Shown here: piece after piece, positions 1 to 19,238 of the stretch
How positions within the stretch are numbered: position 1 is the stretch's first letter
How the letters are laid out: each line of letters begins with the position of its first letter
Virus record (IMG/VR): IMGVR_UViG_3300031715_000005
From: an uncultured virus (IMG/VR IMGVR_UViG_3300031715_000005)
Taxonomy: Duplodnaviria > Heunggongvirae > Uroviricota > Caudoviricetes
Length of the DNA stretch: 20,000 bases
Reading direction: 5' to 3' (one strand)
Notes under the pieces: generated by a model
Seen by the model: only the letters and a program-made list of their open reading frames with translations
Told to the model about the DNA's origin: nothing
Database searches by the model: none
Program-made: the position numbers and the translations under genes

Positions 1-3000
1 TTTCCGTTGATCGGACAAGGCGCAGCCAATCCGATTTTCTCAACGATTGCCTATCCCACGTCGCTCACATCAGGAGGGATTCTTTACGGTTCGAGTGCGA
101 CGGCTCTTTCCAGTTCCGGATTGCTTGGTGCCTCTAATATTGTGGTAGGCGGCGGAGCTGGTACGGCACCTTCGACGGATTCGAACGCGAGTCTTTCGGC
201 GGGTGCTCTGACGCTTGGTGCTTCGGGCACGTTGGGATCAATCGTTCTTGGAAATGCGACGAGCGGCTTGCTTACGATCGAGCCGACTACCGGAGCGATC
301 ACGTCCTATACGATTGCTCTTCCCGTAGCTCAGCCGTCGGGGAGCAATACGTTTCTTTCTTGCACGGCCGCTAATCCGGCGGTATGCACCTGGGCAGCCG
401 GCGGAGGCGGAGGGAGTTCGGCTTTTCCGATTACGGTTTCGGGAACGGTAACTTCCGGCGGGATTCCTTATTTCAATTCGACCACGCAGGAATCTTCGTC
501 GGCGTTGCTGGCTTCTGGAGGAGTTGTTCTTGGTGGCGGAACTGGCGGTGCGCCAAGTACTTCGACGGGGTTGACGTTCTCTTCGCCGACGCTGACTGTT
601 GGAGTGGCGGGAACGACGACGGGAGTCTTAACGCTCGCATCTTCGACAGCCACGGGAAGCGTGAGTTTGACGCCTGCTTCAGCCGCTTCGGCGTTCACAC
701 TGACGTTGCCGGCAATCACGGATACTGTAGCGACGTTAACGGCCACACAGACGTTGACGAATAAATCCATCGCCTTACAGCAAATCACTAGCGCGACCGG
801 AGCGATAGCGACACTGGCGAACGGGAACAATCCGTTGACGATCAACTGTGCGTTGACGAGTGCGGTAGCGTGCGTGACCACGGGAGAAACGACGGCGGCG
901 ACAACTTCGGGAGCGGTCGAAGATCAAGTCACGACGCTCACGACTTCCGCAGCGATTGCTCTTCAGTTGACGCAAGGGGCAGCGGGACCCGCCAACGGTG
1001 CGGCGCCGGCGGTGATCAATGTGACGGCTGCGGCCGCTGGTGGAGCTGCGGGTGCGAGCAATGCGGGCAGCACGGGCGCGCCGATTACTTTGCTGACTGG
1101 CGCGGGATCTGCCGGTGGCGCTACCACAGGGAACGGAGGCAACGGCGGAATCTTTACGGTGACGCAAGGTGTAGGTGGTGCGGCTGGAGGGACCGCGACG
1201 AACAACGGTGGCAACGGTGGAGCACTGGCGTGGACGACAGGTGCCGGGGGCGCCGGGGGGACAGGCGCCGGCACAGCTGGAAATGGCGGTGGAGTGACGT
1301 TTACTTTAGGAGCACCCGGAGCAAATAGTTCGACGGGAACAGCCGGAACGGTAGGACAGTTCAACGTGACTGGCAATGCACCGGCATCCACGGCGAATGC
1401 GACAGGCGTTTCGGCGGGGACGACGTTCGTGGTGACGGGTGTTGCCGGCGGAGCTTCTTCGAACGCGGCGGGTACGGCCGGTGTGGGGTCTATAGCAACG
1501 ATCAACGGTGGTGTAGGTGGCGCCGGGACGGGTACCAATGCCGTCGGCGGAGCCGGAGGCGGTGTCAACCTCAATGCTGGAAACGGCGGTGCTTCGCTTG
1601 GCACGGGAGCCAATTCGAATGGTGCAAGCATTACGCTGACACCAGGCATTGCCGGAACGGGTGGATCAGGAACAGCCGGAAAGGCTGGAGTTGTCTCGGT
1701 AGCTGGACCAAACGCGGGATTTGTGGGATTCACGCAAGGGTCAGCCAACACGACGGCAAACACGAATATCCCGGCGAATACCGTGTTTTTCCAAGCTCCT
1801 ACGTCGGTGACAGCTTATAGCGTGACGCTGCCGGGAGCGGCCGCGACGGGTTTTCCATTCTGGACGAATGCTTCGGGAGTGGTGACGGAAAGCATAGTGG
1901 CCACGATTCCTCTAAACGATATCGTAAGCCCAACCGGAGCCGTGGCGACGTTCGCCCTAGGAACCAACGTGGTGACGTTGAATTGCGCCACTACAAGCGC
2001 GGTGAACTGCGTGACGATGGGGGAGACAACGGCGGCGACGACGAGCGGCTCTGTAGAAACGCAGATTTCTACGCTCACGACTTCGCAAGCCATTCCCTTG
2101 CAATTGACCCAAGGAGCGGCTGGACCTGCGGTCGCGAATGCGCCAGCTGTCATTAATGTTTCGGCGGCGGCTACGGGTGGCGCGGCGACTGCTTCCGTGA
2201 ATGGCTTTGTCGGGGCGCCAATCACTTTGATCACCGGCGCGGGATCGGCTGGAGGTTCTACCACCGGGAACGGCGGTACGGGTGGAGCTTTTAACCTTAC
2301 GACGGGCGCTGGAGGTGCGCACGGTGGCACTACGACGAATACGGGCGGTATCGGAGGTGCAATCAACCTCACCACGGGCGCTGGCACCGCGGGAGCCGCA
2401 ACAGGAGCCGGAGCGGCGGCCGGAGCTTTGGTTTTCGCGGGTGGCACGGGTGGAGCTGGCGGCTCGACTTCCGGCACGGGCGGCGCTGGAGGAGATTTCC
2501 TGGTTACGACCGGCACGGGCGGCGCGGCGACTTCGGGAAGCACAACCGGGCGAGGCGGAAACTTTATCGTGACTCTCGGAAGCGCCGGCGGAACAGGCAC
2601 GGCTGGTGCGCCGGGGCAATTCGAAGTTTTCGGGGGAACGGTTGGAGCTGCGAACGTCACTCCATTCGTGAACGTAACGGGTACTTGGAATACCACGGGC
2701 ACGGTGGACGCGGCGATTTTTGCGAATATCACCAATACAGCTTCAGGCGCGAGTTCGTTGCTGGAAGATTTGCAAGTCGGTAGCGCCAGCAAGTTCAGTG
2801 TGGACAAAAATGGTCTTGTCACGGCCGGATCAATCTCGCAGTCGGGCGGGACCCAAATTATTTCCGGAGCGGATTACACAAACTCCACCACCACGCCGTC
2901 TACAGTTTTTAGTTGGACGCTTCCAGCAACCGCTTCGGCAAAAACGTACCGCTTTTCCTGCGATATCATGTGGGAGAGCACGAACACGACGCTTGTCGGT

Positions 3001-3300
3001 CCAGTTTTCGGAGTGAATATATCAGCAGCTCCAACGCAGTTGACAGCAAATGCCTCTGTTCAAAATACTCTTGCTGGCGCGGATATAAACGGCTATCTGA
3101 GCAACACGACAACCGGGTCACAGACATTAGTAACTAGCAGCGCAGCGGGAGTAACCAGCACAAATTATTGGGCAAAGATTTGGGGCACGATTGAAGGAGC
3201 CCCGGTTGCGGGAAGCACGTTCATTATCAATGCGGCTTCGACAAGCGGAACGACGGCGACGTTGAATATTCGGAGAGGCTCCGGATGCACCTTAAACTAG
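1..3300 (+). CDS. Gly/Ala/Thr-rich tail fibre/adhesin-like protein, 5'-truncated by the window edge
   Basis: The frame is open from base 1 (ttt ccg ttg atc...), so the TTG at 7 is probably not the real start. It contains two internal duplications and long GGxGG poly-Gly tracts, followed by a distinct C-terminal globular domain. Confidence 0.75.
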   Translation, partial: FPLIGQGAANPIFSTIAYPTSLTSGGILYGSSATALSSSGLLGASNIVVGGGAGTAPSTDSNASLSAGALTLGASGTLGSIVLGNATSGLLTIEPTTGAITSYTIALPVAQPSGSNTFLSCTAANPAVCTWAAGGGGGSSAFPITVSGTVTSGGIPYFNSTTQESSSALLASGGVVLGGGTGGAPSTSTGLTFSSPTLTVGVAGTTTGVLTLASSTATGSVSLTPASAASAFTLTLPAITDTVATLTATQTLTNKSIALQQITSATGAIATLANGNNPLTINCALTSAVACVTTGETTAATTSGAVEDQVTTLTTSAAIALQLTQGAAGPANGAAPAVINVTAAAAGGAAGASNAGSTGAPITLLTGAGSAGGATTGNGGNGGIFTVTQGVGGAAGGTATNNGGNGGALAWTTGAGGAGGTGAGTAGNGGGVTFTLGAPGANSSTGTAGTVGQFNVTGNAPASTANATGVSAGTTFVVTGVAGGASSNAAGTAGVGSIATINGGVGGAGTGTNAVGGAGGGVNLNAGNGGASLGTGANSNGASITLTPGIAGTGGSGTAGKAGVVSVAGPNAGFVGFTQGSANTTANTNIPANTVFFQAPTSVTAYSVTLPGAAATGFPFWTNASGVVTESIVATIPLNDIVSPTGAVATFALGTNVVTLNCATTSAVNCVTMGETTAATTSGSVETQISTLTTSQAIPLQLTQGAAGPAVANAPAVINVSAAATGGAATASVNGFVGAPITLITGAGSAGGSTTGNGGTGGAFNLTTGAGGAHGGTTTNTGGIGGAINLTTGAGTAGAATGAGAAAGALVFAGGTGGAGGSTSGTGGAGGDFLVTTGTGGAATSGSTTGRGGNFIVTLGSAGGTGTAGAPGQFEVFGGTVGAANVTPFVNVTGTWNTTGTVDAAIFANITNTASGASSLLEDLQVGSASKFSVDKNGLVTAGSISQSGGTQIISGADYTNSTTTPSTVFSWTLPATASAKTYRFSCDIMWESTNTTLVGPVFGVNISAAPTQLTANASVQNTLAGADINGYLSNTTTGSQTLVTSSAAGVTSTNYWAKIWGTIEGAPVAGSTFIINAASTSGTTATLNIRRGSGCTLN

Positions 3301-4103
3301 GTCGAATCTCATTTCTGATTTTGTTGGTGGCCTTCTTCTGTTCTCCGGCGAAGGCTAATCCTGTCCAGACATGCAACGTGAGTGCTAGTTCGACGACGAG
3401 TACGAGTTGCACGCTGAATGCGACGACCGTTGCGGCTGGAGATTTGCTTACATGCGGCGTGATGTGGGGCAACGTGATCAGTGGGGAGACGTTTGCGGTC
3501 AGTGATCCCACGAATGGGACCTACACCGCAATCACGGGGACTCCGCTCAATGACACCGGCCCTTCCAATTCGCTGTATGGGGCATGGGTCAAAAATAGTA
3601 CGTCCAATGCGACGTTGACGATCACGATAACCATGACGGGCAGCGGTGGTTCGCATACGATTCGCATGGGCTGTTACGAGTATCATTCAGCGACGGGTTG
3701 GCCGACGAACCCGGTAGATACGCAAGCGGCTTCGACTTGTGCGGCAGCCTTCACTTGCACAACGTCGAGCATCACGCCTTCCGTGACGGGCGAGCTGGTG
3801 TTTGCGGCGTGGATCATGCAAGGCACTCCGGCGGCGAGCAGCTTCACGGTTTCGGCCGGATGCGCGGAACAGGATGCCGGGGGAACGGCCGGAACTGGTT
3901 GGGGATCGCAGACGCGCGCAACGGGCGCGGACAATGAAAATTCGGGAAACACGTCCACAAATTGCACGATTAACTGGACGACTACCACTTCGGGAACGGC
4001 ATTTTATATCGTGGCGTTCAAGCCGAATGCGGGAAGCGGAATCGTGAGCAATTTGACCGTGGGGGGGAACGCAGTCGTTGGAGGAAAGGTGGTAGTTTAC
4101 TAA
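3285..4103 (+). CDS. Secreted Thr/Ser-rich beta-sandwich-like protein (putative minor fibre/adhesin)
   Basis: GGAGAGG RBS upstream and overlap with the previous stop. Signal peptide MHLKLGRISFLILLVAFFCSPAKA|N. The body resembles a domain repeated in the next gene. Confidence 0.75.
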   Translation: MHLKLGRISFLILLVAFFCSPAKANPVQTCNVSASSTTSTSCTLNATTVAAGDLLTCGVMWGNVISGETFAVSDPTNGTYTAITGTPLNDTGPSNSLYGAWVKNSTSNATLTITITMTGSGGSHTIRMGCYEYHSATGWPTNPVDTQAASTCAAAFTCTTSSITPSVTGELVFAAWIMQGTPAASSFTVSAGCAEQDAGGTAGTGWGSQTRATGADNENSGNTSTNCTINWTTTTSGTAFYIVAFKPNAGSGIVSNLTVGGNAVVGGKVVVY

Positions 4104-7100
4104 TGTTTTCCGTCAAGAAAATAGCTTTGCTGGTGGGAGCCTGCCTTCTTTTCTCAATTTCTTCTCCGGCGCAGAGTCCTCCGCCGACAATCTTCTTCAC
4201 CGATTTGGACAGTGGGCCAAACAGCGGGGGAGAAAGTGTCAGCGGGTTCGCCGGCGCGTACGTGACTATTTACGGGAATTTCTTTGGGACTTCCCAGGGC
4301 AGCTCAACGATCACTTGGAACGGGCTGAATTGCTTACGCGTGTTGCCGGTAACGGGAAATTACACGGGATGGGGCATGGCGCACCTGTGGTATCAGGAAA
4401 TTATCGTGCAGATCGGTCCAACGTGCACGGCGGCTACGGGAAGTTTCGTCGTCACGACGACAAACGGATCATCGAACGGGTTGGCGTTCACGGTCCGGAG
4501 CGGAAACATCTATTGTATTTCCAATTCGGGAAGCGATAGCAACAGCGGCGCTTTCCCAAGCTCCTGTTTTGCAACGCCGAAGTTTGCCTTCACCAAAATG
4601 AATGCGGGAGACACCGCTTATTGGGAAGGGGGCGTAGTCGTTTCTTCGGGTGGAAGTTTTTCCGCTTTGGATTGGGGCGCCAGCGGGACGGCCGGGAATC
4701 CGGTAGCGATGGTGTCTTATCCGGGAGCTTCACCGCAACCAGGGGTGCAGTGCAACCCCTGCCAGGACGGGTATGCAATCCGGGCCGCGCAGGGTTTCCC
4801 GGCTCAGGATAACTACCTCACGATGGCGGGGCTTTTCATTTCCGGAGATACATTCGCTTGGTTCTCGGAGTATGGAGGGACGAATCAGCGGTTTGTAGGG
4901 AACAAATTCACTTGTGTGGGAAATTCCGCAGCCGTCGGCTGTTTCCAGACTAGTCAGCAGACGTTCATCAAGTACTACGGAAACGAAGTCACCGGAATCG
5001 TGGCGGGAACACAGAGCGGCGGCAATGGGACCTCGAAGCAATACCACGCTGTCTACTTTTGCACCGACACGAATCACATCGAAGAAGCTTGGAACTCGAT
5101 CCATGACAACCTGAGCTGCAACGCTACCCAGGTCCATTCCTCGCCGGTGAATGGGACGACGGGTTTCGATCAGTACGACATTTCGATTCACGACAATCTT
5201 GTCCACGACGAACCGTGCACGGCTTTTCTTCTGGCCACGGTAGATCCCTCGCAGGGGAAAGTCGAGCTGTACAACAATGTCATTTATCACGTAGGAATTG
5301 GGCCGGCTCCGGCGGATGGCGAAGAAAGCGAAACGTGTTTCCGATTTGCTCAGATCATCAATAATTCTCCGCCCCTGCCAAGCGGGACTGCGGAGGTTTA
5401 TAACAATACGTGCGTGGACGCGGGTTCGTTCGTGGGAGCATTCGGGCATTCGGGATCGCTTGGCCTCGATTCCGGATCGACGGACATTGCCGTGCGATTC
5501 CGAAATAATATTTTCTATCAACTGTCGGGAGAGTTTTTCACGAACAGTGGAAGCGTGCCTGCCGCTAATGCTCCTCCGCTGTCCGGCTCCAACAATGTGT
5601 GGTTTGGGGGAAACCAGACAGCCCCTTCTTTTACGACAGGGAATCTGACGGCCGATCCGCTGTTCATCAATCGTTCGGTGAACAACCTGCACATACAAAC
5701 AACGAGCGAGGCGGTGAAGGCCGGAACGCTCATCAGCAATGCGACGACGTACAAAAGCTATCCGCCGTACCAGGGAAGCACGCCGATTGATCACGACAGC
5801 ATCCGCAGGTCGAATGCGCCTTCGATTGGAGCATACGAATTGGGGACGTTGCCGACGTTCGTTTACAGTGCGGTCGCGCCGTTGGCGATTCCTTCTGGAA
5901 GCGGATTCAGTGGTCCTAGCTCTTGCACGTCGGGTAATCCCTGCTACCGGATTCCGGTAGATCCCACGGCAATTACAGCGGGAAGCACGATCCTGCTTTC
6001 CTTTGGATACGACAGTACGAGCAGCAATCAGGTGTTTACGGTCACGGACGATCAAAGCGACACGTACACACTCGATGTGACTTCCTCGCAGAGCAACAAT
6101 AAGACGCTGAAAATCTACCGGGCCGTGAACGTCGCCGCAGGAGTGCATTACATCAACGTGCAACTCACTAGCGGAGCGGCCAACGGATATTGGCAGGGAC
6201 AAGTAGCTGTCTTTTACAATGCGAACAGTTTAGATGTGGCATCCTGCAACGCGGCCACTTCCACGACGGTCAGCGCCGGCAGCATGGTCGTGACTACCAG
6301 CGGGGACCTGATTTTTCAGGCGACCTATGCTTCAGCTCAAAATTCGGAGTCGTCGTTTACGGTTGGGTCACAAACCAATATTTCCTGGAATCTGGCTTCG
6401 ACGCTGTTGGGCGATGGAGCCGCAAGCCAGTACGGAGTCTACAATTCGACTTCGGCCATCAATCCGACGTTCACGCAAGCTTCCTCGAATGCGTACATCA
6501 GTTGCGCGGTGGCTTTGCTGGCCAATGCGACGGGAAGCGCGCCGACAACGATTCCTCGCGTGGTTCATCAGGAACACGACGCCATGCCGAAAAATTCAGC
6601 GAGTCCGTGGCACGTGGGCTTCGTTTTGGATGTCCCCAATTCGGCCGTGTATCTGTCCTATGTTGGCAACGATTCGATTTCGAGCGTGAGTTCGAGCCCT
6701 TCGCCTACCGGCACGGCCTGGACGGCGAGCGGATCGGATTTCACGGGGTTGAACGGCCACAATCACGTCAACTTTTACTGCGCGAGTTGGACCAGTCCGC
6801 CGGGATTTGTGAACCTCAGTATCAGCCGCGGCGGGACTTCGAACGACTCGATCAATATGATCTACGTCGTCCAGAACGCGACCTGCAACCTCGATGTGGA
6901 TTCAGCGGGCCAATCCGGGAATCAAACATCCGCAGGGTCATTGACCGTCTGTACGTCGTGTCTGACACCGACGAAACAAAATGATTTCATCATGTCCGAG
7001 GGTGGACAGGCGTTTTGCACGGCGACGAGCGCGACGTCGCCTTCGAATGCAAATTTTTCGACCGTTTGGTACACCGGCAATACGGTTGACGGCCCGACAC

Positions 7101-7582
7101 AGACGGATGAAAATAATTTTTGGTCCTTCCTCTACAATGGCAGCAGCCTTAGCGCGTTCACGATCACTTACGCGGAATCTTGCGATAACCCGCAGGGAGA
7201 TTGGGCCAATCGCGTAGCCGCCTATCAGTCGTCGGCGAACGTGGCGGCTTCTGTCCCGACGTTTTCTCCCGTGGCAGGAACCTATGGCGGTGCGCAGTCA
7301 GTCACACTCAGCACGTCGTCCAGCGGTGCGGTGATCTGCTACACGACGAATGGAACGACGCCGACGACAAATGGAACAACGGGTTGCACGGCGGGGACTT
7401 TGTATTCGGCGGCAATCGTTGTGAACACCACGGAAACGATTGAGGCCGTTGCTGGAGGAACAGGTTACACGGATTCGGGAATTGGGACGGCGGCATATAC
7501 GATCAACGCAACACCTCTGGCGGCCGCTCCCTCTATTTTTGCAGGAAATTTGAACGTCTCGGGACAAGTAATAGTCAAGTGA
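4103..7582 (+). CDS. Large secreted multidomain protein: IPT/TIG-like domain, right-handed beta-helix (depolymerase/tailspike-like), two beta-sandwich repeats, chitobiase/Fn3-like (CHB_HEX_C-type) domain
   Basis: TAATG coupling. Signal peptide MFSVKKIALLVGACLLFSISSPA|Q. Motifs: VTIYGNFFG (IPT); IHDNLVHD, LYNNVIY, VYNNT, FRNNIFY (beta-helix); ADPLF...PSIGAYE; PTFSPVAGTY...SVTLS...ICYTTNGTTP. Confidence 0.8.
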   Translation: MFSVKKIALLVGACLLFSISSPAQSPPPTIFFTDLDSGPNSGGESVSGFAGAYVTIYGNFFGTSQGSSTITWNGLNCLRVLPVTGNYTGWGMAHLWYQEIIVQIGPTCTAATGSFVVTTTNGSSNGLAFTVRSGNIYCISNSGSDSNSGAFPSSCFATPKFAFTKMNAGDTAYWEGGVVVSSGGSFSALDWGASGTAGNPVAMVSYPGASPQPGVQCNPCQDGYAIRAAQGFPAQDNYLTMAGLFISGDTFAWFSEYGGTNQRFVGNKFTCVGNSAAVGCFQTSQQTFIKYYGNEVTGIVAGTQSGGNGTSKQYHAVYFCTDTNHIEEAWNSIHDNLSCNATQVHSSPVNGTTGFDQYDISIHDNLVHDEPCTAFLLATVDPSQGKVELYNNVIYHVGIGPAPADGEESETCFRFAQIINNSPPLPSGTAEVYNNTCVDAGSFVGAFGHSGSLGLDSGSTDIAVRFRNNIFYQLSGEFFTNSGSVPAANAPPLSGSNNVWFGGNQTAPSFTTGNLTADPLFINRSVNNLHIQTTSEAVKAGTLISNATTYKSYPPYQGSTPIDHDSIRRSNAPSIGAYELGTLPTFVYSAVAPLAIPSGSGFSGPSSCTSGNPCYRIPVDPTAITAGSTILLSFGYDSTSSNQVFTVTDDQSDTYTLDVTSSQSNNKTLKIYRAVNVAAGVHYINVQLTSGAANGYWQGQVAVFYNANSLDVASCNAATSTTVSAGSMVVTTSGDLIFQATYASAQNSESSFTVGSQTNISWNLASTLLGDGAASQYGVYNSTSAINPTFTQASSNAYISCAVALLANATGSAPTTIPRVVHQEHDAMPKNSASPWHVGFVLDVPNSAVYLSYVGNDSISSVSSSPSPTGTAWTASGSDFTGLNGHNHVNFYCASWTSPPGFVNLSISRGGTSNDSINMIYVVQNATCNLDVDSAGQSGNQTSAGSLTVCTSCLTPTKQNDFIMSEGGQAFCTATSATSPSNANFSTVWYTGNTVDGPTQTDENNFWSFLYNGSSLSAFTITYAESCDNPQGDWANRVAAYQSSANVAASVPTFSPVAGTYGGAQSVTLSTSSSGAVICYTTNGTTPTTNGTTGCTAGTLYSAAIVVNTTETIEAVAGGTGYTDSGIGTAAYTINATPLAAAPSIFAGNLNVSGQVIVK

Positions 7583-7591
7583 GGAGATGAA

Positions 7592-8065
7592 ATGAAAAAG
7601 CTTGCATCGGGAATTTTGCTGTGTTTGGTTTTTTTGGTCGGTCTGGAAACTTCGCGCGTGGCGCGGGTTCATGCGCAAACGGCGGAGGCGGCTACATTCC
7701 AGGGACTAGCGGCGCACACGACTTGCTTGACACCCGTGACTGGTTCGTATTTCCTGTGCGTGGCATCCGATGGAATTTGGGTTAGCAACAACGGCGCCGC
7801 TTATTTCCAGGTGGTCGCCTCGTCGGGAACGGCCGGAGTCACTTCCTTTAATGGAAGGACAGGGGCAGTCGTTCCGACGGCGGGCGACTACAGCTTTTCG
7901 CTTTTGAGCGGGAGCGCGACGGCTTCACAGGTTCCGCCAGCGGTCAATTCGCTGACAGTTTGCAATGCGGCCGGGACTACGTGCGGATCGGCACAGACCG
8001 GGGCAATCTCTCTCTCGATCCCTAAGACGGTTACGGTGGCGGCTCCCACGGCCACGCTGCAATGA
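7592..8065 (+). CDS. Secreted small fibre-like protein
   Basis: GAGGAG RBS. Signal peptide ending RVHA|Q. Contains VTSFNGRTGAVV, a motif typical of phage tail fibres (VTSVNGxTGxV). Confidence 0.75.
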   Translation: MKKLASGILLCLVFLVGLETSRVARVHAQTAEAATFQGLAAHTTCLTPVTGSYFLCVASDGIWVSNNGAAYFQVVASSGTAGVTSFNGRTGAVVPTAGDYSFSLLSGSATASQVPPAVNSLTVCNAAGTTCGSAQTGAISLSIPKTVTVAAPTATLQ

Positions 8066-8235
8066 TCGAAAGGCGCGAACAAAACCGGAAAGTCAAGACG
8101 AAGGCATTTCTGATCGTGATGATCTCGTTTTTGGTGGTGAAGATTGTCGGAGAGCACTATCAATCGGTGGATCATTACTCGCATTTGGCTGTTCTGGCTT
8201 TTCTCGGTGCTCGCATCTTTCTCAGGGATATCTAG
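8062..8235 (+). CDS. 57-aa membrane protein with two hydrophobic segments (holin-like candidate), not in the ORF track
   Basis: ATGA overlap with the upstream stop. MIERREQNRKVKTKAFLIVMISFLVVKIVGEHYQSVDHYSHLAVLAFLGARIFLRDI*. Fills the gap before the next gene. Confidence 0.65.
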   Translation: MIERREQNRKVKTKAFLIVMISFLVVKIVGEHYQSVDHYSHLAVLAFLGARIFLRDI

Positions 8236-8243
8236 GGGCCATA

Positions 8244-8756
8244 ATGACAGGTGAGTCAGTTCTGGTTGCATTAGGAGGAGTGATTGCTGCGATTTTAGGA
8301 AGCTACGTCATTGTACGACACAGTGACTATGAAAGGCAGTTGGTGGATGAACGCTGGCGCGGAGGAATCGAAACGAAGGTGGACGCCATGTGGAAGGTAC
8401 TCTTCCGCGCGGCGACGTTCGATGGATTGGTTGGAGGAATTTTACAGACGAAAAGCCCGATCCACGTCAACCTAGATGCGTTCAAGACTCACCCCGAACT
8501 TGTGAAGAAGCTGAAAGACTTCTACGAGACAACGGGGAAAAACCTGAAAGACCTGGAGCTGTTTGTCGAGCTGGAGAATCGCTTTTCCGCCGATTTCTCT
8601 CAGTTCGAACGGCAGCATGGATTGAGAGCTGTCGCATCGGTGGCGGCGGCGTGCTACTTGCTGCGTCCGGAAATGAGCATTTTCGATCATCGCAATTTTG
8701 AAATTACGAAGTCGGCTTATGCCGATGAACCTCCGGAGCAAGGAAAAGAAGGGTAG
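8244..8756 (+). CDS. Hypothetical protein with an N-terminal transmembrane helix (170 aa)
   Basis: Start revised from 7965 to ATG 8244 (AGGGG RBS). MTGESVLVALGGVIAAILGSYVIV is a TM helix, followed by a short helical segment. Confidence 0.7.
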   Translation: MTGESVLVALGGVIAAILGSYVIVRHSDYERQLVDERWRGGIETKVDAMWKVLFRAATFDGLVGGILQTKSPIHVNLDAFKTHPELVKKLKDFYETTGKNLKDLELFVELENRFSADFSQFERQHGLRAVASVAAACYLLRPEMSIFDHRNFEITKSAYADEPPEQGKEG

Positions 8757-8781
8757 ACATTCAAGGTAAAGATAGTAGAAT
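8754..8781 (+). promoter_or_regulatory. Sigma70-like promoter
   Basis: TAGACA (8754-8759), 16-nt spacer, TAGAAT (8776-8781), upstream of the AAGGAG RBS of the gene at 8802. Confidence 0.55.
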
Positions 8782-8801
8782 GTTTTGCCAAGGAGCGTGA
8801 T

Positions 8802-9446
8802 ATGAAAATCACTCGAACATTGAAATTCAACTTCAGCACGTTTTTGTTTACGTTTTTGGTGTTGCAGCTCGTGGTTCTGGCTTCTGGATGTTCGGCGGCA
8901 TGGTTGGGGGCCGTGAGCGCGTTGATGCCGGCGCTAGAGACGGCAGTATCGGCGGCAATCGCTTTTGTGATGGCTCTGGAGGGTAAGACCGTCCCGGCAT
9001 CGGTGAGCGCGGCAATTCAGAAGATCGGACAAGATATCTCCGCGCAGATTGCCAACGTTCAACAGCTCATTACGGTCTATCAGGGAGCGGCTTCGACCGG
9101 AACACTCAGCCAGATCCAGGCGGTGTTTCAGGCCATCGTGGCGAACCTTGGGAATATCCTTACTGCCTTCCAGGTGAGCGATTCGACTACCATGAGCAAG
9201 CTTACGCAACTCGTTGGCCTGTGTGTTGCCGCGGCGCAAGCGATCCTCGCGCTGATTCCGTTGGTAGCGACGAAGTTGGCTTCTGGAGCCTCGAAGTCTG
9301 AACTGGAAGCGGACGACAAACTCGCGGCATCTTCGGTCAAGAATGTGGAAAGCGGACTGAAACAGGCTTACGTTCAAGTCATTTCGGAAGAGACTCCTAG
9401 CGCGGACGTGAATGCCGCTCTGTTGACTCTGCCGCGAACGCTGTAG
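8802..9446 (+). CDS. Predicted alpha-helical lipoprotein
   Basis: Lipobox-like LVVLASG|C. Ala-rich amphipathic helices and a late hydrophobic stretch LVGLCVAAAQAILALIPLVA. Confidence 0.7.
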   Translation: MKITRTLKFNFSTFLFTFLVLQLVVLASGCSAAWLGAVSALMPALETAVSAAIAFVMALEGKTVPASVSAAIQKIGQDISAQIANVQQLITVYQGAASTGTLSQIQAVFQAIVANLGNILTAFQVSDSTTMSKLTQLVGLCVAAAQAILALIPLVATKLASGASKSELEADDKLAASSVKNVESGLKQAYVQVISEETPSADVNAALLTLPRTL

Positions 9447-9495
9447 ACTCTTACGAAGGGTGCCTCTGTCCGTCTGAGCTAAAGGGAGTGGAGTC

Positions 9496-10236
9496 GTGAA
9501 ACTTGGAAAACTACCTAGGAAAATTCATTATAGGACGATCCCTTTTCCGAGGTTTCTGAGTGACACGGCTCCCGCTCCCGATCCCGCCAAGGTCTATTGG
9601 GAGTACAAGCTTCCTCAGAAAAATCTTCAGATGTTCAAGAACGACAGTCTTGGTTGCTGCACGGTTGCGGCAATTGCGCACATGATTATGAACATGACGG
9701 CGCACACGGGATCAATCGTGATCCCGACGGATGATCAGGTGGTGGAGTTTTATTCGGCTGTCAGCGGGTACGTGCCCGGAGATGAATCCACCGATAATGG
9801 AGCAACGATCACGGACGTTCTGGCGAGGTGGCAGAGCGTGGGGCTGGCCGGGCACAAAATCGCCGGGTGGGTGGAATTTGACTTTGGCAATCCGCAGCAT
9901 TTCGATTGGGCGCAGTATCTTTTCGGCGGCGCGGACTGCGGGATGCAGCTTCCTAATTCCGCGATGGAGCAGTTCAACGCCAACGAAGCTTGGGATGTTG
10001 TCACCAACGATGGCGGGATTGACGGTGGCCATAGCGTCCCGTATTTTGGGTATGGCTCCGCTGGCCGCATGGGTCTTACCTGGGCGAAGAATCAAGCGGC
10101 AACGAAGGCGTTCGAAGCGAAATATTTCGACGAGGCGTACGCGGTGTTCGGGCCGGATTGGTTTGACAACGCAAGCATCGCTCCGAACGGGTTCGACAAG
10201 GACGCGCTGTATGCGTACTGGAAAACGTTGAACTAA
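9496..10236 (+). CDS. Papain-like (clan CA) cysteine peptidase
   Basis: GTG start with GGAG RBS. Catalytic-type motifs NDSLGCCTVAA (Cys), GGHSV (His) and LTWA, plus DEAYAV. Confidence 0.75.
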   Translation: MKLGKLPRKIHYRTIPFPRFLSDTAPAPDPAKVYWEYKLPQKNLQMFKNDSLGCCTVAAIAHMIMNMTAHTGSIVIPTDDQVVEFYSAVSGYVPGDESTDNGATITDVLARWQSVGLAGHKIAGWVEFDFGNPQHFDWAQYLFGGADCGMQLPNSAMEQFNANEAWDVVTNDGGIDGGHSVPYFGYGSAGRMGLTWAKNQAATKAFEAKYFDEAYAVFGPDWFDNASIAPNGFDKDALYAYWKTLN

Positions 10237-10255
10237 AAAACTTACGGCTCAAATT

Positions 10256-10296
10256 GCGCGGGGTGGCGGATGAAACTGCCATCCCGCGTTAGTTTC
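10256..10296 (+). terminator. GC-rich hairpin, possible intrinsic terminator or processing site
   Basis: 14-bp stem GCGCGGGGTGGCGG (10256-10269) pairs with CTGCCATCCCGCGT (10276-10289) using 3 G-U pairs and a 6-nt loop. The U-tract is weak (TAGTTTC). Confidence 0.5.
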
Positions 10297-10312
10297 AAAA
10301 AAGGGGGACGTG

Positions 10313-10480
10313 ATGAAAGAAAATTTCTGGAAGTATAAGGGGTATATTCTTCATTGTGCGGCGGTGGCAATTATTTTCTTGACGCCTTCGGTGCAACAGG
10401 CTTTGCTTGCGCATCCGAAAACGTCGGCCGCTGGCACGGTGGTTTGGGGTTTCCTGCTTCATTGGGCGACTGGCAAGTAA
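10313..10480 (+). CDS. Putative holin (55 aa), not in the ORF track
   Basis: AAGGGGG RBS. MKENFWKYKGYILHCAAVAIIFLTPSVQQALLAHPKTSAAGTVVWGFLLHWATGK* has two hydrophobic segments, and its stop abuts the endolysin start. Confidence 0.65.
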   Translation: MKENFWKYKGYILHCAAVAIIFLTPSVQQALLAHPKTSAAGTVVWGFLLHWATGK

Positions 10481-11008
10481 GTGGACGCAATCTCATTGGC
10501 GAGGATCGGCGAACTGCATCCGGAGCTGGCGCGGCGCTGGACACAAGCCGATCAGCTCCTGGAAGCGCAGGGTATCCGCATCCGTGTAGATCAGGGATTG
10601 CGCACGATGTCACAGCAACAAAGCATCTGGCAGGAAGGCCGCAATCCGGATGGTTCCTTCATTGATCCGATCCATCGCAAAGGTGTGGTGACGTACGCCA
10701 AGGCCGGCCAGTCCTATCACAATTATGGCCTCGCGCTCGATGGCGTACCGATGGTGAACGGCGAGCCTGTGTGGGACCGGGAGACGGAACCGGGCTTGAC
10801 GCTGTATGCGAAAATGGTCACGGCCGGAGAGACGGTAGGGCTCACTTCGGGGTCTAGGTGGCCCGAACCCAAAACGGACTTTCCTCATTTTCAGTTGACG
10901 GGAAAATTCCTGGAAGATGAACCGGATGATTCGGTGAAGGCGCTCTTCGATGCTGGCGGACTTCCGGCAGTTTGGGCGCAGTTGGACAAGGATCTCGGTA
11001 TCGCTTGA
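10481..11008 (+). CDS. Endolysin, peptidase M15 family (L-Ala-D-Glu peptidase-like)
   Basis: Motifs GLRT..QQ, VTYAKAGQSYHNYGLALD (SxH...D zinc ligands) and DFPHFQ (DxxH). Confidence 0.9.
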   Translation: MDAISLARIGELHPELARRWTQADQLLEAQGIRIRVDQGLRTMSQQQSIWQEGRNPDGSFIDPIHRKGVVTYAKAGQSYHNYGLALDGVPMVNGEPVWDRETEPGLTLYAKMVTAGETVGLTSGSRWPEPKTDFPHFQLTGKFLEDEPDDSVKALFDAGGLPAVWAQLDKDLGIA

Positions 11009-11017
11009 GGAGGCCGT

Positions 11018-11242
11018 ATGGGAGCTGGACTGAGCGGAGGAGCAATTGTAGTGGTGCTTCTGATAGGCATGGCCGTCTACGGCGGGTCAGCCGTGATCCA
11101 CGGGATCGGGCATGTGTTCAAGAAAACGGCTCAGGTTACGACCCATCCGATCCGGCATCCGAAGAAAGATGCGAAGGCCGTCTACCATAAACTTTCAGGT
11201 GACAGACCGACACCTCCGCCGGCGGGAGCCGGAACGAAGTAG
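11018..11242 (+). CDS. Small membrane protein with a basic/Pro-rich tail (possible lysis accessory)
   Basis: GAGGAGG RBS. N-terminal TM AIVVVLLIGMAVYGG followed by a His/Lys-rich tail. Lies directly after the endolysin. Confidence 0.65.
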   Translation: MGAGLSGGAIVVVLLIGMAVYGGSAVIHGIGHVFKKTAQVTTHPIRHPKKDAKAVYHKLSGDRPTPPPAGAGTK

Positions 11243-11245
11243 CTC

Positions 11246-11611
11246 ATGGAATCCACGCACGTCTATATCGTCGTTCTCCGCAATCTTGACCTTCCGGATC
11301 GGAAACTGTGCATGACTTCTGGCAGGATCGCCTCTCATGCGGTTCATGCGGCTGTAAAACTCCAACGCGCGCTTGGTTGCGACGTTTCCGAAAAGTGGAT
11401 CATCATTCTGTCTGTTGCAAACAATGTGGAATTGGAAACAGTCTGCCAAGAACTAAACCGCGAGAGGATTCAGTACGTGGAATACCGCGACGTGGACGAT
11501 GCTTTCCAGGGGCAACATTTAACCGCGATTGCAACTTTTCCGATGGAAAAGAATCAATCAGGGACGCTGAAAAAGCTACGCCCATGGCGCTGCGCTTGCA
11601 ACGAGATTTAA
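11246..11611 (+). CDS. Peptidyl-tRNA hydrolase 2 (PTH2)-like protein
   Basis: YIVVLRNL...MTSGRIASHAVHAA matches the PTH2 pattern xIVVRxDLxMSxGKxAAQxxHA. KWIILSV..EL and LTAIATFP...LKKL are also consistent, and the length is typical. Confidence 0.8.
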   Translation: MESTHVYIVVLRNLDLPDRKLCMTSGRIASHAVHAAVKLQRALGCDVSEKWIIILSVANNVELETVCQELNRERIQYVEYRDVDDAFQGQHLTAIATFPMEKNQSGTLKKLRPWRCACNEI

Positions 11612-11743
11612 GGAAGATCGCCAATCCTTCGGAATATCCTCTCCGCAAATCCAACACCATTCACGGTCATCAGGATACTTCATGCGGAAGAGATGCTCGC
11701 ATGGCGGGTCAATTTCTATTTCCAGCAAATCAATAGGCTCCAT
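11576..11743 (-). CDS. 55-aa putative Zn-binding microprotein (CxH...CxxC)
   Basis: Strong RBS AAGGAAGG 6 nt before the ATG (complement of 11741-11743). MEPIDLLEIEIDPPCEHLFRMKYPDDREWCWICGEDIPKDWRSSLNLVASAAPWA*. Has its own promoter candidate upstream. Confidence 0.6.
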   Translation of the reverse strand: MEPIDLLEIEIDPPCEHLFRMKYPDDREWCWICGEDIPKDWRSSLNLVASAAPWA

Positions 11744-11779
11744 AGCGGACCTTCCTTCGAATAGGCTGGACACAGAAAG

Positions 11780-11807
11780 AGCATAACACAAAATAAATGA
11801 AACGCAA
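11780..11807 (-). promoter_or_regulatory. Leftward sigma70-like promoter with extended -10
   Basis: On the minus strand: TTGCGT (11807-11802), 16-nt spacer, TATGCT (11785-11780), preceded by TGn. Confidence 0.5.
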
Positions 11808-11820
11808 CTAAAAATAACCC

Positions 11821-11849
11821 TTGACAACTCTGTGGCCCTGTAGAAAGAT
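11821..11849 (+). promoter_or_regulatory. Rightward early promoter
   Basis: Perfect TTGACA (11821-11826), 17-nt spacer, weak -10 AAAGAT (11844-11849), with an A-rich UP-like tract upstream. Confidence 0.55.
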
Positions 11850-11856
11850 GCCTTCC

Positions 11857-12003
11857 ATGCCAGCGAAGGACATTCTCGTTGCGACGAAAATTGACGAAGC
11901 TCTGCACAAAAAGTTGGTGGCCAGAGCGAAGGAACAAGATCGCAGCATTGCCTATCTGATTCGCCAAGCGATAGAAAATCTTGTCAACGGTGGCCATAAG
12001 TGA
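11857..12003 (+). CDS. Ribbon-helix-helix (CopG/Arc-like) DNA-binding protein
   Basis: MPAKDILVATKIDEALHKKLVARAKEQDRSIAYLIRQAIENL shows the beta-strand, helix, RS-x-x-x-LIRxAI pattern. The start is placed at ATG 11857; 11848 is an alternative. Confidence 0.8.
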   Translation: MPAKDILVATKIDEALHKKLVARAKEQDRSIAYLIRQAIENLVNGGHK

Positions 12004-12095
12004 AGCGCGAACCGCTCTGGAAAGCAGCCAGGGCGGCATTGTTTTGCGTGGTGGCTGTAGTGGTGTGTTCGATTCTGGTGGTCGTGCTCGAATAG
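12000..12095 (+). CDS. 31-aa single-TM peptide, not in the ORF track
   Basis: GTGA overlap with the RHH stop. MKREPLWKAARAALFCVVAVVVCSILVVVLE*. Ends just before the next RBS. Confidence 0.5.
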   Translation: MKREPLWKAARAALFCVVAVVVCSILVVVLE

Positions 12096-12111
12096 GAAAG
12101 GAAGGTGCTAG

Positions 12112-13119
12112 GTGGAAACGGCAATTACTTCTCCGAACGTAGAGAAGATCACGGCGGCTATTGCAACCCTTCAATCAAGGTTGGCCGCGATTACGGTAAT
12201 CGAGACGGAAGAGCAGTTCAGGGAAATAGCGGCGGTCAAGCTGGATGCCAAAGCGTACATCAAAAGCGTGGGGTTTGAGCTGGACCCTGGAATTGAAAAA
12301 GCCAAGGAAGTTGTACGACATCTAAACGATCAGAAAACCAAGTTTGTGAGTCCGGCTGAAAAAGTGGTTGAGGCTGCGGAAGAAAAGATTGCAGACAAGA
12401 ATCGCCGGGAGAGACTCGCGGCAGAGGCGGACACACGCCGGCGGAATCAAGAGGCACAAGCGAAGGCGGACCGTGAAGCAGCCGAAAAGAAACGGTTGGC
12501 CGATGAGGAAGCGGCGCGGCTGAAGAAAGCAGCCGATGAACAAGCGGAGCGGGATCGGCTTGCCGCTCAGAAGAAAGCGGATGAAGATAAAAAGGAAGCC
12601 GATAGAAAAGCGGAAGCCGATAGAAAAGCAAAACAAAAAGAAATTGATGATGCACGGGCGCGAGGCGTGGTGAACAAGCGTGAGGCTGAACGGTTGAAGA
12701 AAGAAACCGATGAGAAGGCCGCGCGGGACAAAAAAGTGGCTGACGAGAAAGCAGCGACCGACAAAAAGGCGGCTGACGAACAGGCAGAACGTGAAAAGAA
12801 AGAAGCTGCGGAAGCGGCGGAACGGTTGACGCAGCAAGCGGCCACGGATGCCGCCGTGATCCAGTCCAGCGTAGTCAAGGAAACGGTGCTGCCGAATCGA
12901 ATTGCCGTCGCTGGCCTTCGTGGAGGGGGGAAGTGGGTATTCACGGTCACGGATATCACGAAGATTCCTCGAAACCTGTTGTATCCGAATCCCAAGGATG
13001 ATGGAACCTTCGATCCGGAGAAACTCCCGCGGGTGGGAGATTTTGTCCGGAAAACGAAGGACAAAGAGAAGGCAGAGGCAGGATGTCCGGGGATCGAGGT
13101 CACGTTCATAGATCGGTAA
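12112..13119 (+). CDS. Phage coiled-coil protein with a long charged Ala/Glu/Lys/Arg linker
   Basis: AAGGAAGG RBS and GTG start. The C-terminal KWVFTVTDITKIPRNLL motif is of a type I associate with phage early/recombination modules. Confidence 0.75.
   Translation: METAITSPNVEKITAAIATLQSRLAAITVIETEEQFREIAAVKLDAKAYIKSVGFELDPGIEKAKEVVRHLNDQKTKFVSPAEKVVEAAEEKIADKNRRERLAAEADTRRRNQEAQAKADREAAEKKRLADEEAARLKKAADEQAERDRLAAQKKADEDKKEADRKAEADRKAKQKEIDDARARGVVNKREAERLKKETDEKAARDKKVADEKAATDKKAADEQAEREKKEAAEAAERLTQQAATDAAVIQSSVVKETVLPNRIAVAGLRGGGKWVFTVTDITKIPRNLLYPNPKDDGTFDPEKLPRVGDFVRKTKDKEKAEAGCPGIEVTFIDR
12594..12629 (+). repeat. Perfect 18-bp in-frame tandem duplication
   Basis: GGAAGCCGATAGAAAAGC occurs twice (12594-12611 and 12612-12629) and encodes EADRKA EADRKA. 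Confidence 0.9.
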
Positions 13120-13122
13120 GAG

Positions 13123-13423
13123 TTTGCTCGCATCGGGAGCGCAAGGGTGATTGCCTTTGAGGGGCCTGGTGCGGGTGAAAGGGCAGTGGTTGTCCGGAAG
13201 CGGTAAAGACGTAGCTCGTCGGTTGAAGGGGATACGGCACTTAGGTCGGACTGTTTTATGATCTCAGCGAAACAAACCGAGGGATGCATCCGTTTCCCAG
13301 TAGGGACGGAGATTCCCTTTCATGTACCGCAAGGAAGTTACAACCCCCTGCGGGAAAACTGAGGGAGAGTAGTTCTAAGAGTCAAACGTCGCAATGCCCA
13401 CCAACCATTGCCCATTAGAATTG
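13123..13423 (+). ncRNA. Candidate structured RNA of unassigned family
   Basis: About 310-nt gap in otherwise tightly packed genes. Several nested helices are visible, and many rely on G-U pairs that work only on the + strand (details in findings). Confidence 0.65.
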
Positions 13424-13431
13424 GAGAGATG

Positions 13432-14703
13432 ATGAAACGCGCAGCGAAACGAACGAAGGCAACTCCTCGACGGTCGCTCGGACGCCGACGGTTACGAGCG
13501 AAGCAAACGGCTATCGTGCACGTGCCACAGCCAGCGGCAATCCAACGGACATCCGATGTGCCGCGCGTGATGGAGACGGTCAAGGATTTGGAGCTGGTCC
13601 GGCGGTTTGTAATCAACTGCATGAACGTAGACCTGAAACGCGCGGAAGAACGCGCGAAACTTTTGGGGAAAAAGCTGAGTGAGGAGGAACGTCAGGCTCT
13701 TGAGGTAGATTGGGGAACCATCCCGAATGTGGACAAACCTTTCCTAAAACAACCCGGTGCGGAAAAATATAACTTCTGGCTGAAGTTGAAGCCGAAGTAT
13801 CACAAACAAACGACGGAGCTGGAAGGTGGACACTTGGAAATGGTCTGCCACGTGTCGTTGCTTACCAAGAAAGGCGGGGAAGAAATTTTCGAGGGGCCGG
13901 ACGCCTCTTGTACGACGATGGAATCCAATTACCGATTCCGCTGGAGAAAGTGCGAAGGCAATGAGAAAGATCCTGTGCCATCAGAAGCAGAGCAAGCGCA
14001 ACTGAAGAGAGAAGGGCGCGGTCGCTGGCAATTGACACAAGAATGGATTCATGGGGTCAAGCAAAAAGAAAAGGTTTGGAAGTGGTTTGAGCGCGTCAAC
14101 AATCCGAATATTTGGGATGAACGGAACAAGGTCCGCCAGATGGGAGAGAAGCGCGGGTTGGTCAAAGCGGTCCGCGGGTGCGGCGCCATGTCGGAGCTGT
14201 TCGTAGCCTCTCCGGATGAGTGGGACGTTGGACCGGAAGAGGAAGGAAGCCCGGTCGTAGACGCGGATCACACGGAAAGCGGCCGCCGGGTAGTAAATGA
14301 ACAGGGATTCGCGCCGTCCGGCAAGCCAGTTACCCAGGAAGCCTACCATGAGCAAGGGCAGGCTATTGCACGTGCGAAAGCAGAGGAATTGAGGAGAAAG
14401 ATGGAGCAAGAGGAGAAACAGCCTCCAGCGCAGCCGAAAAGCGATTATGTCCAGAAGGTCGAGCAAGAGTACGAGGAAAACCGGGTGGTTTACTTGATCA
14501 GGACCAAAACTAGCAATGACGTGAGAGTTTTGGGTTGGTTGGGCGATGGAGCAATGGAAGAGTTCCTAGGGAACGTCAATGCCAAGCGAATCGAGGACGA
14601 ATTGGACCGCTCTGTCTCCTGGAAGTTTGGACAGGAGTACGTCCCCAAGTTCAATGCTGTCTGCCAGCAGTTGAAGATTAACGTCGAGAAGATCGGCCCA
14701 TGA
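13432..14703 (+). CDS. Putative phage single-strand annealing/recombination protein
   Basis: GGAG RBS (ATG 13429 is an alternative start). DWGTIPNVDKPFLKQPGAEK and NKVRQMGEKRGLVKAVR...SELF match the widespread phage family DYGxIPGxxKPxLxKPGAEK...KMAxKRAxVxAV. An acidic linker and a C-terminal domain follow. Confidence 0.6.
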   Translation: MKRAAKRTKATPRRSLGRRRLRAKQTAIVHVPQPAAIQRTSDVPRVMETVKDLELVRRFVINCMNVDLKRAEERAKLLGKKLSEEERQALEVDWGTIPNVDKPFLKQPGAEKYNFWLKLKPKYHKQTTELEGGHLEMVCHVSLLTKKGGEEIFEGPDASCTTMESNYRFRWRKCEGNEKDPVPSEAEQAQLKREGRGRWQLTQEWIHGVKQKEKVWKWFERVNNPNIWDERNKVRQMGEKRGLVKAVRGCGAMSELFVASPDEWDVGPEEEGSPVVDADHTESGRRVVNEQGFAPSGKPVTQEAYHEQGQAIARAKAEELRRKMEQEEKQPPAQPKSDYVQKVEQEYEENRVVYLIRTKTSNDVRVLGWLGDGAMEEFLGNVNAKRIEDELDRSVSWKFGQEYVPKFNAVCQQLKINVEKIGP

Positions 14704-19056: not shown

Positions 19057-19238
19057 AAGTTGACGGGAAGAAGTTGGAGTTGAAAGGCACGGTGGTCGAG
19101 AGCCGAATGACGAAGGGCGCGCTTTATATGGTGGATGAGCGCGGTCTAGCGAATTATCCGGGGATGTTCCAGAGTTTAGGATTGGATTGGGAAGTGGGGA
19201 CAAAGTTAAAAATCGTCATTGAGCCGGAGGAGCCATGA
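19053..19238 (+). CDS. Hypothetical small beta-rich protein (61 aa)
   Basis: ATGA overlaps at both ends. Ends in GTKLKIVIEP. Confidence 0.65.
   Translation: MKVDGKKLELKGTVVESRMTKGALYMVDERGLANYPGMFQSLGLDWEVGTKLKIVIEPEEP

Follow-up and report, generated by a model that had tools for sequence, protein, structure and literature searches.

Gene content of the locus

The window analysed here is the whole stretch of 20,000 nucleotides from an uncultured virus of the Caudoviricetes (IMG/VR record IMGVR_UViG_3300031715_000005). It is phage DNA with all genes in one direction, and a megablast of the whole window against 50,697 phage records gave no match. Our subject is a run of fibre-like genes for which an initial annotation, made from the sequence alone, had proposed Sec signal peptides and closely spaced cysteine pairs of the disulfide type. 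Their placement ahead of the lysis genes is correct, an M15 endolysin being encoded at 10481-11008 with small membrane proteins on either side.

The window begins inside a giant fibre gene, P0001, whose open reading frame (ORF; 1..3300, plus strand) is open at the 5' end and holds the last 1099 codons. On the same strand follow P0002 (3285..4103, 272 amino acids, aa), P0003 (4103..7582, 1159 aa) and P0004 (7592..8065, 157 aa). Translation and starts backed by Shine-Dalgarno-type motifs (GGAGAGG, AAGGTGG and GAGGAG, respectively) confirm these three ORFs. All three starts overlap or abut the preceding stops, with that of P0003 joined to the stop of P0002 by a TAATG stop-start overlap. The cysteine motifs pointed out earlier were all recovered, namely CAAAFTC, CTSGNPC and CNAAGTTC, together with CTAANPAVC and CALTSAVAC from the truncated first gene. 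The same is true of the fibre motif VTSFNGRTGAV, located at residues 83-93 of P0004 (nt 7838-7870, plus strand).

The upstream 10 kb can be read from L030, a metagenome contig nearly identical to the window (100% over the 600 aa compared), in which base 10187 corresponds to base 1 of the window. There the first gene is complete (5912-13486) and encodes a 2524-aa fibre with an N-terminal signal peptide (MKFIRW, a hydrophobic stretch and AHA|QQ). The gene order in L030 is baseplate hub (phrog_196), GpV-apex spike piece, wedge subunits (phrog_120 and phrog_6), DUF2612, P0208, P0209, the giant fibre and P0002-P0004. P0208, upstream of the signal-bearing genes, is a signal-less 188-aa 'tail fiber protein' (phrog_11303), and P0209, directly before the giant fibre gene, is a signal-bearing 205-aa mini-fibre. 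The initial observation is therefore wider than claimed, with the truncated gene signal-bearing once complete and five such genes in a row (P0209, the giant fibre, P0002, P0003 and P0004), covering ~13 kb between the baseplate genes and the lysis cassette.

The module is joined to the hub, wedge and short-fibre genes by gaps of 8-12 nt or by overlaps. Promoter-like sites are no more frequent than expected from shuffled sequence (7 vs 5.3 +/- 2.1), and neither are terminator-like sites (10 vs 14.7 +/- 4.4). With baseplate genes upstream and no excess of promoter or terminator signal, the module genes are phage late-operon genes, and the possibility raised at first that they might be host cargo outside the phage boundary is not borne out.

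Signal peptides

Signals were called with our own heuristic for the n-, h- and c-regions (n/h/c) and a self-trained gene caller. P0002 has a predicted Sec signal peptide of 24 aa (3285..3356, plus strand) formed by MHLKLGR, 12 hydrophobic residues and SPAKA|N. That of P0003, with 23 aa (4103..4171, plus strand), consists of MFSVKK, 13 hydrophobic residues and SSPA|Q, and that of P0004, with 28 aa (7592..7675, plus strand), of MKK, 15 hydrophobic residues and ETSRVARVHA|Q. All three proteins are flagged by the heuristic and have a positively charged n-region, an uncharged hydrophobic core in the range of ~7-17 residues and small residues at -3 and -1, as in Sec type I signals. The signals ending in AKA|N, SPA|Q and VHA|Q are thus confirmed by the heuristic and also by the comparison of homologues described below.

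As controls, the heuristic flags 3 of 60 called genes in lambda (Lom, Rz and Bor, all truly membrane or exported proteins), 2 of 35 annotated genes in the siphovirus Tunturi_4, with none among gp1-gp23, and 7 of 135 genes in Tunturi_3, with none among structural proteins of at least 300 aa. Its specificity looks good on these three phages. It cannot separate a cleaved signal from a signal anchor (lambda Rz is flagged too), and the comparison of homologues carries more weight for the reality of the signals.

Two other readings of these N-termini were rejected. The LVGAC of P0003 could suggest a lipoprotein cleaved by signal peptidase II, but this was dropped because the homologues align on the A|Q junction. 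Internal starts yielding signal-less isoforms do not fit either, given that P0004 has no in-frame Met near the cleavage site or after the signal, and that no in-frame Met follows the signal before residue 60 in P0002 or before residue ~92 in P0003.

Conservation of the signals among homologues

We surveyed relatives of four of the proteins for conservation of the signal, as had been recommended. In the P0004 family, 29 of 32 homologues are signal-like. The alignment of 33 sequences shows MKK, a hydrophobic stretch and V-x-A-Q, where Q29 never varies and A28, C45 and C56 show at least 90% conservation each. For P0002, 46 representative homologues were found among 1.84 billion proteins and 31 of them are signal-like; the search for relatives in viral contigs returned 0 loci. 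In the signal-less subset of P0002 relatives, the Met is set directly on the aligned mature N-terminus, S-[IV]-S-L-[TV]-Q-S, so the signal behaves as a separable unit ending at the predicted cleavage site.

The N-terminal half of P0003 (residues 24-580) has at least 177 homologues, of which 119 were retrieved. Their recorded starts are signal-like in 82 cases, and many of the non-flagged ones look 5'-truncated or over-extended. After A|Q, P0003 and its homologues have in common the mature N-terminus Q-x-P-x-x-F-F-[ST]-D-x-x-S-G-P-N. In two viral contigs the halves of P0003 are separate genes (51% and 59% identity), each with its own signal. Relatives of the giant fibre were found at 23 metagenome loci, 21 of them with a single open frame over the match and 16 with a complete N-terminus. 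Scanned leniently over start codons, 15 of these 16 are signal-like (the L036 call is dubious and L043 has no signal).

These comparisons strongly support the view that the signals are conserved where the sequence drifts and are kept through domain shuffling. The conserved signals and the signal-less relatives that start at the cleavage site likewise give strong support to export of these proteins. We consider export through Sec, with cleavage, to be highly probable, and it constitutes the core of the finding.

Related phages and host

The same module occurs in other phages. G001 is a complete viral genome of 64,123 bp with terminal repeats, where terminase, portal and major head genes are present. 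The module genes are signal-bearing in 4 of 4 cases in G001, 4 of 4 in G004, a 20.9-kb fragment where one of the signals depends on an alternative start, 5 of 6 in Tunturi_2 (gp12-gp17) and 7 of 9 in G002. G001 and G004 have the order giant signal-bearing fibre, 250-aa protein, large enzyme-like protein, P0004-family protein and small membrane proteins. The giant fibre of the window's phage has segments in common with gp13 of Tunturi_2, a 'tail fiber protein' (59.6% over 89 aa), and with a 2047-aa protein of G004. Besides, the giant fibre of G001, itself signal-bearing, incorporates the C-terminal domain of the P0208-type protein (46% identity), which looks like a fission/fusion relationship. 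In G001, a gene lying between those for portal and head (63519-63920) also encodes a signal-bearing protein, 133 aa long and Ig-like in appearance, so the signals in this lineage are not limited to the fibre slot.

Tunturi_2 is a cultured podovirus whose signal-bearing genes are annotated as 'tail fiber protein', 'pectin lyase' and 'virion structural protein'. These gene names come from structure-based annotation and not from proteomics, and a search of the Tunturi paper by terms found no mention of signal peptides or mass spectrometry. The same search showed that clear plaques are described, and we saw no reference to plaque halos or to fibres on micrographs. Neither Tunturi_3 nor Tunturi_4 has the module, and their tail proteins are signal-less. 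Both phages infect the host genus of Tunturi_2, and Tunturi_3 infects the very strain that Tunturi_2 does. The signals are therefore a strategy of the lineage and not a requirement of the host.

The window's only phage relatives are Tunturiibacter phages, and an Acidobacteriaceae metagenome-assembled genome has, on a contig of 823 kb, a prophage remnant with a P0004-family gene and a phrog_19005 gene. For these reasons, the host of the window's phage is probably a member of Acidobacteriota.

Protein architecture and cysteines

P0002 consists of the signal peptide, a two-layer beta-sandwich of the jelly-roll type and a floppy Gly-rich C-terminal tail. In its AlphaFold2 (AF2) model (predicted local distance difference test, pLDDT, of 87.8), the signal is an N-terminal helix and the sandwich covers residues 24-245. 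Against BFVD, the model resembles uncultured Caudovirales proteins, mycobacteriophage minor tail proteins and a CenC-like carbohydrate-binding protein (TMq 0.55-0.68), and Foldseek against the PDB gives only generic jelly rolls with low TM. The best VIA-align Z is 6.2 (TNF-like lectins, the head of a lactococcal phage receptor-binding protein and carbohydrate-binding modules), a value too low to indicate anything beyond a shared general arrangement. Scans of Pfam, PHROGs and NCBIfam found nothing for P0001 or P0002.

P0003 is a mosaic. After the signal come an IPT/TIG domain and a right-handed beta-helix (residues 24-580), two beta-rich modules (584-1065), a CHB_HEX_C_1/Fn3_assoc region (1056-1132) and a Gly-rich tail. 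The same library scans detect only the C-terminal CHB_HEX_C/Fn3_assoc. The beta-helix half is homologous to PF22842-bearing proteins, and a relative in L002 adds a GH16 domain. In neither P0002 nor P0003 did we see an N-terminal particle-binding domain, with the functional domains beginning right after the signal.

P0004 carries the signal, a beta domain with Cys45-Cys56, the fibre motif, a second Cys pair and a C-terminal TLQ. The library scans gave only weak motif matches. In the AF2 model, residues 2-23 are one helix, and a small Cys-bridged beta domain is followed by fibre-motif segments of low confidence. Foldseek against BFVD returned 0 matches at E <= 0.001, and the Protein Atlas scores of 0.81-0.83 serve as leads only.

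Similar Gly-rich amphipathic tails (F-x-G-N-L-N-V-S-G-x-V-I-V-K type) end P0002 (4040-4100), P0003 (7523-7579) and phage-borne counterparts (G004 3962-5860, minus strand; P0058 and P0064). The tail is disordered in the P0002 model and absent from the chromosomal homologues of P0003; it could be a docking or sorting tag. The C-termini of the P0004 family and of many other signal-bearing proteins often read hydrophobic-x-hydrophobic-Q (TLQ, TIQ, VLQ, RLQ and TVQ).

Oxidative folding, also part of the initial proposal, stands in part. The C45/C56 pair is near-invariant in the P0004 family, and the two cysteines of a second motif, C-N-x-A-G-x-x-C, never occur singly and are present in 5 of 33 sequences. 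Of the aligned P0002 sequences, two have both C57 and C129 and the remaining two have neither; P0002 alone has the CAAAFTC pair. Cysteine pairs are thus kept, gained or lost together, and it is this co-variation that suggests disulfides. On the other hand, an even number of cysteines does not separate the signal-like proteins (20 even and 6 odd) from signal-less controls (58 and 30; Fisher p = 0.21), and for this reason parity is not counted as evidence.

Where the probably exported proteins may act

We slightly favour the reading in which this late-operon module of host-recognition-type proteins, exported through Sec, forms a distal adsorption apparatus that becomes part of the particles once the envelope has been breached. 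A role as free exported enzymes or adhesins ranks just behind. Two fates had been proposed at first, addition to virions at lysis and display on the host surface. Joining of the virion receives the slight preference, but these are not the sole options, with free periplasmic or extracellular enzymes released at lysis equally live.

If the proteins do join the virion, the giant fibre, the lectin-like jelly-roll protein, the putative beta-helix glycan enzyme and the mini-fibre, each with a cleavable Sec signal, would, as sequence and comparison suggest, cross the inner membrane unfolded, be cut by signal peptidase at a small-x-small|Q site and fold in the periplasm, with disulfides. They would meet the cytoplasm-built particles only once holin and endolysin breach the envelope. 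Docking could take place on the signal-less proximal fibre stub P0208 in the window's phage, and through a tailspike-type N-terminal domain in podoviruses of the Tunturi_2 type. It is possible, and we say so tentatively, that particle building is divided between two compartments in a clade of tailed phages from soil (Acidobacteriota). Head, tail and proximal stub would be cytoplasmic, and the distal apparatus (giant fibres, depolymerase spikes and lectin-like tips) would pass through Sec, signal peptidase and periplasmic disulfide formation to be attached just after the holin opens the inner membrane.

Several observations point to a place on the particle. G001 and Tunturi_2 have the Kuravirus gene order (head, tail fibre, lysis, tail), and the module sits in the tail-fibre slot. 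In both phages the first module protein has, behind its signal and a loop flanked by Cys, a domain of ~65 aa whose homologues form the very N-terminal end of tailspikes and tail fibres from cultured coliphages, Klebsiella phages and Pseudomonas phages (tblastn E from 4e-8 to 1e-2; pairwise E of 6e-10 and 7e-10). This domain is 45% identical between G001 and Tunturi_2, against 30-37% for the terminase, portal, head and tail proteins, and the remaining fibre is unrelated. An N-domain more conserved than the core virion proteins is the usual behaviour of receptor-binding protein anchors, so the pattern is that of a classical particle anchor. Just after the anchor domain of the signal-bearing G001 fibre, the C-terminal domain of P0208 recurs (46% identity, E 2e-12). 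Between these two genomes all other structural genes are conserved and only the signal-bearing genes are mosaic, like host-range genes. The resemblance of the predicted P0002 fold to phage minor tail proteins may also be counted for a virion role. A complex predicted between three fibre N-domain copies and the tail protein of G001 scored 0.01 against a mark of 0.34 and is uninformative either way. A homologue of the Jilinvirus baseplate protein adjoining its spike was looked for in related phages and not found.

A number of points weigh against virion joining. We know of no tailed phage that assembles fibres outside the cytoplasm, and our literature search brought up no report of tailed phages whose fibre modules carry Sec signals. 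The N-terminal half of P0003 is an ordinary member of its family of at least 177 proteins, many of them on Mb-size Acidobacteriota contigs, with the same signal-mature junction and without an N-terminal particle-binding domain. Signal-less P0002 relatives have a conserved C-terminal motif (E-P-I-I-S-V-W type), which we saw just once among the 31 signal-bearing relatives. The signal-bearing beta-helix gene of L002 has a signal-less P0002-like gene directly after it, and therefore the products of adjacent genes can occupy different compartments. With P0208, the window's phage is already equipped with a tail fibre protein that lacks a signal, and the signal-less tail proteins of Tunturi_3 and Tunturi_4 serve phages of the same host genus. 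The domain types seen here (choice-of-anchor D/Q, CHB_HEX_C, GH16 and Ig-like) are typical of bacterial extracellular proteins. Finally, the label 'virion structural protein' given to Tunturi genes has its origin in structure-based annotation, not in proteomics.

Many of these points suit a second explanation, quite possible although slightly less favoured, where the proteins are exported but never join the particle. They would be free, late periplasmic or extracellular glycan-binding or glycan-degrading proteins, secreted by host systems or freed at lysis, which loosen or destroy host exopolysaccharide or receptors and so aid progeny escape or block re-adsorption to debris, while the signal-less short fibre and the tail tip adsorb. 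In its favour are the large chromosomal secreted Acidobacteriota family that includes the IPT and beta-helix half of P0003 with the same mature N-terminus, the bacterial extracellular type of the domain content, and the absence of the C-terminal motif from most signal-bearing P0002 relatives. A signal-less short 'tail fiber protein' of the P0208 type also lies directly 5' of the signal-bearing genes in three contigs (L030 4707-5273, L031 1341-1898 and L042 7-708). In a survey of prophage carbohydrate-active enzymes, SignalP finds signals on 5% of them (3261/64,678; PMC13507307), and a bacterial exported tailspike-like depolymerase, WceF, exists (PMC7949094). Free proteins leave unexplained, however, why a fibre of 2000-2700 aa with fibre motifs and a tip domain would be exported, and why G001 and Tunturi_2 keep a tailspike-type N-domain more conserved than their core virion proteins. 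We saw no other variable receptor-binding candidate in these two podoviruses, and the genes are translationally coupled to baseplate genes instead of being independently expressed cargo.

It is improbable that the N-termini are uncleaved signal anchors, with the proteins tethered to the inner membrane and facing the periplasm, where they would mask or modify receptors (superinfection exclusion) or act in lysis like spanins. The heuristic is blind to this difference, as lambda Rz illustrates, and P0004 has the longest hydrophobic stretch, a charged c-region of 10 residues and a single helix at residues 2-23 in the AF2 model. Relatives of P0004 always lie just 5' of small membrane proteins and lysis genes. 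Yet the hydrophobic cores have 11-17 residues, which is signal-like, and not 20 or more. The alignment of 33 P0004-family sequences shows that the A-Q junction and the V at -3 are maintained, the signal-less P0002 relatives begin at the cleavage point, and the P0004 model is predicted to be beta-rich without a coiled coil. The proteins are also very large, and P0002-P0004 have no lipobox. Even less credible is that the signals are unused, either because the starts were mis-called or because the phage blocks Sec late, so that precursors stay in the cytoplasm and assemble normally. The starts were indeed chosen by ORF and Shine-Dalgarno motif alone. Nevertheless, the same n/h/c architecture starts dozens of unrelated genes and homologues, the positions of the in-frame Met codons described above leave no signal-less start near the three signals, and a conserved cleavage motif would not be maintained without use.

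Two known classes of phage envelope protein were considered and discarded. Moron-type proteins (Lom, Bor, Cor and Llp) are small outer-membrane proteins or lipoproteins with their own promoter, expressed in lysogens; the module proteins have 157-2524 aa, P0002-P0004 bear no lipobox, their starts overlap or abut upstream genes and there is no promoter excess. Spanins have an N-terminal membrane anchor, a periplasmic coiled coil and a paired lipoprotein gene. P0004 has a small beta domain without coiled coil in the AF2 model and a fibre motif in common with a real tail fibre.

Comparison with known systems

Tail fibres and tailspikes are characteristically made in the cytoplasm without a secretion signal. 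The Kuravirus (phiEco32-like) tail fibre WFI101126 gp012 occupies the same slot (head genes, fibre, holin/endolysin, tail genes) and has the motif V-T-S-F-N-G-R-T-G-x-V-V-P-x-A-G-D-Y, but it is a single signal-less gene, in contrast to 4-5 genes here, each with a Sec signal. The Jilinvirus tailspikes (ECO1230-10 Orf17 and the Alux-21 'head-binding domain-containing protein') have the homologous ~65-aa N-domain and, compared with G001 and Tunturi_2, a gene placed likewise after the baseplate/tail genes. They lack the signal, whereas in G001 and Tunturi_2 a signal peptide and a loop with a Cys at either end come before the domain. All genes of the module are signal-bearing, unlike the fibres of Kuravirus, Jilinvirus, Tunturi_3 and Tunturi_4.

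Chromosomal IPT/TIG and beta-helix proteins of Acidobacteriota (Bryobacteraceae, some with a TIGR03437 C-terminal domain) have 35-72% identity to residues 24-580 of P0003 and the same signal-mature junction. The phage protein differs in swapping the C-terminal part for jelly-roll modules, CHB_HEX_C and the Gly-rich tail, and in its location in a late operon. In filamentous phages, g3p is a receptor-binding protein with a Sec signal that becomes disulfide-bonded in the periplasm, but inoviruses assemble at the membrane and are extruded, while tailed phages assemble in the cytoplasm.

Tailed phages are known to send late proteins through Sec before lysis, such as the endolysin Lys44 with its Sec signal and the signal-arrest-release (SAR) endolysins (PMC6116005). 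In those cases it is the lysis enzymes that are exported, whereas here the endolysin has no signal and the fibre/spike genes do. WceF of Pantoea is similar in being exported and tailspike-like, but different in being bacterial and using Tat (PMC7949094). The prophage survey cited above excluded tail fibres and concerns single genes rather than a whole module in the fibre position (PMC13507307).

Tailed-phage assembly is taken as wholly cytoplasmic, and the annotation of fibres and spikes routinely assumes so. Conserved Sec signals on a whole host-recognition module are present here in one cultured phage (Tunturi_2), one complete uncultured genome and ~15 further soil contigs. If the proteins join virions, this would be a new assembly route, undescribed for any tailed phage, and a way to disulfide-stabilised fibres; assembly in two compartments, if true, may be an adaptation for fibres surviving acidic soil. 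If they stay off virions, the phage would devote ~13 kb of a roughly 70-kb genome to exported fibre-like proteins, which would point to an unrecognised extracellular infection arm in exopolysaccharide-rich soil bacteria. The matter bears as well on how 'viral carbohydrate-active enzymes' are counted in soil metagenomes. Cultures exist of Tunturi_1 and Tunturi_2 as well as of their host, which opens the question to direct experiment.

Other features of the window

Between the fibre module and the lysis genes, outside the module, a gene for a 214-aa membrane or lipoprotein-like protein (8802..9446, plus strand) has a lipobox, LASGC, and two more hydrophobic segments; this membrane protein may serve in exclusion or as an accessory to lysis. 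Just upstream of the gene, at 8754-8781, is the region's best promoter-like site. The gene is followed by that of a phrog_19005 protein (9496-10236) with a conserved G-C-C-T motif, which is near lysis genes both in the window and in the Acidobacteriaceae prophage remnant (L026 11915-12643).

The lysis cassette (10313..11242, plus strand) is formed by a 55-aa protein with one transmembrane segment (10313-10480), the M15 endolysin without signal and a 74-aa protein with an N-terminal transmembrane segment (11018-11242). Directly 3' of it, a PTH2-like peptidyl-tRNA hydrolase domain (11246-11611; Pfam E 3e-6) is unusual phage cargo. Among the replication genes, at 19235-19993, a 252-aa protein with 13 Cys and a lipoprotein-like start (a hydrophobic stretch to L-V-G-C) is another protein of exported type, outside the fibre module.

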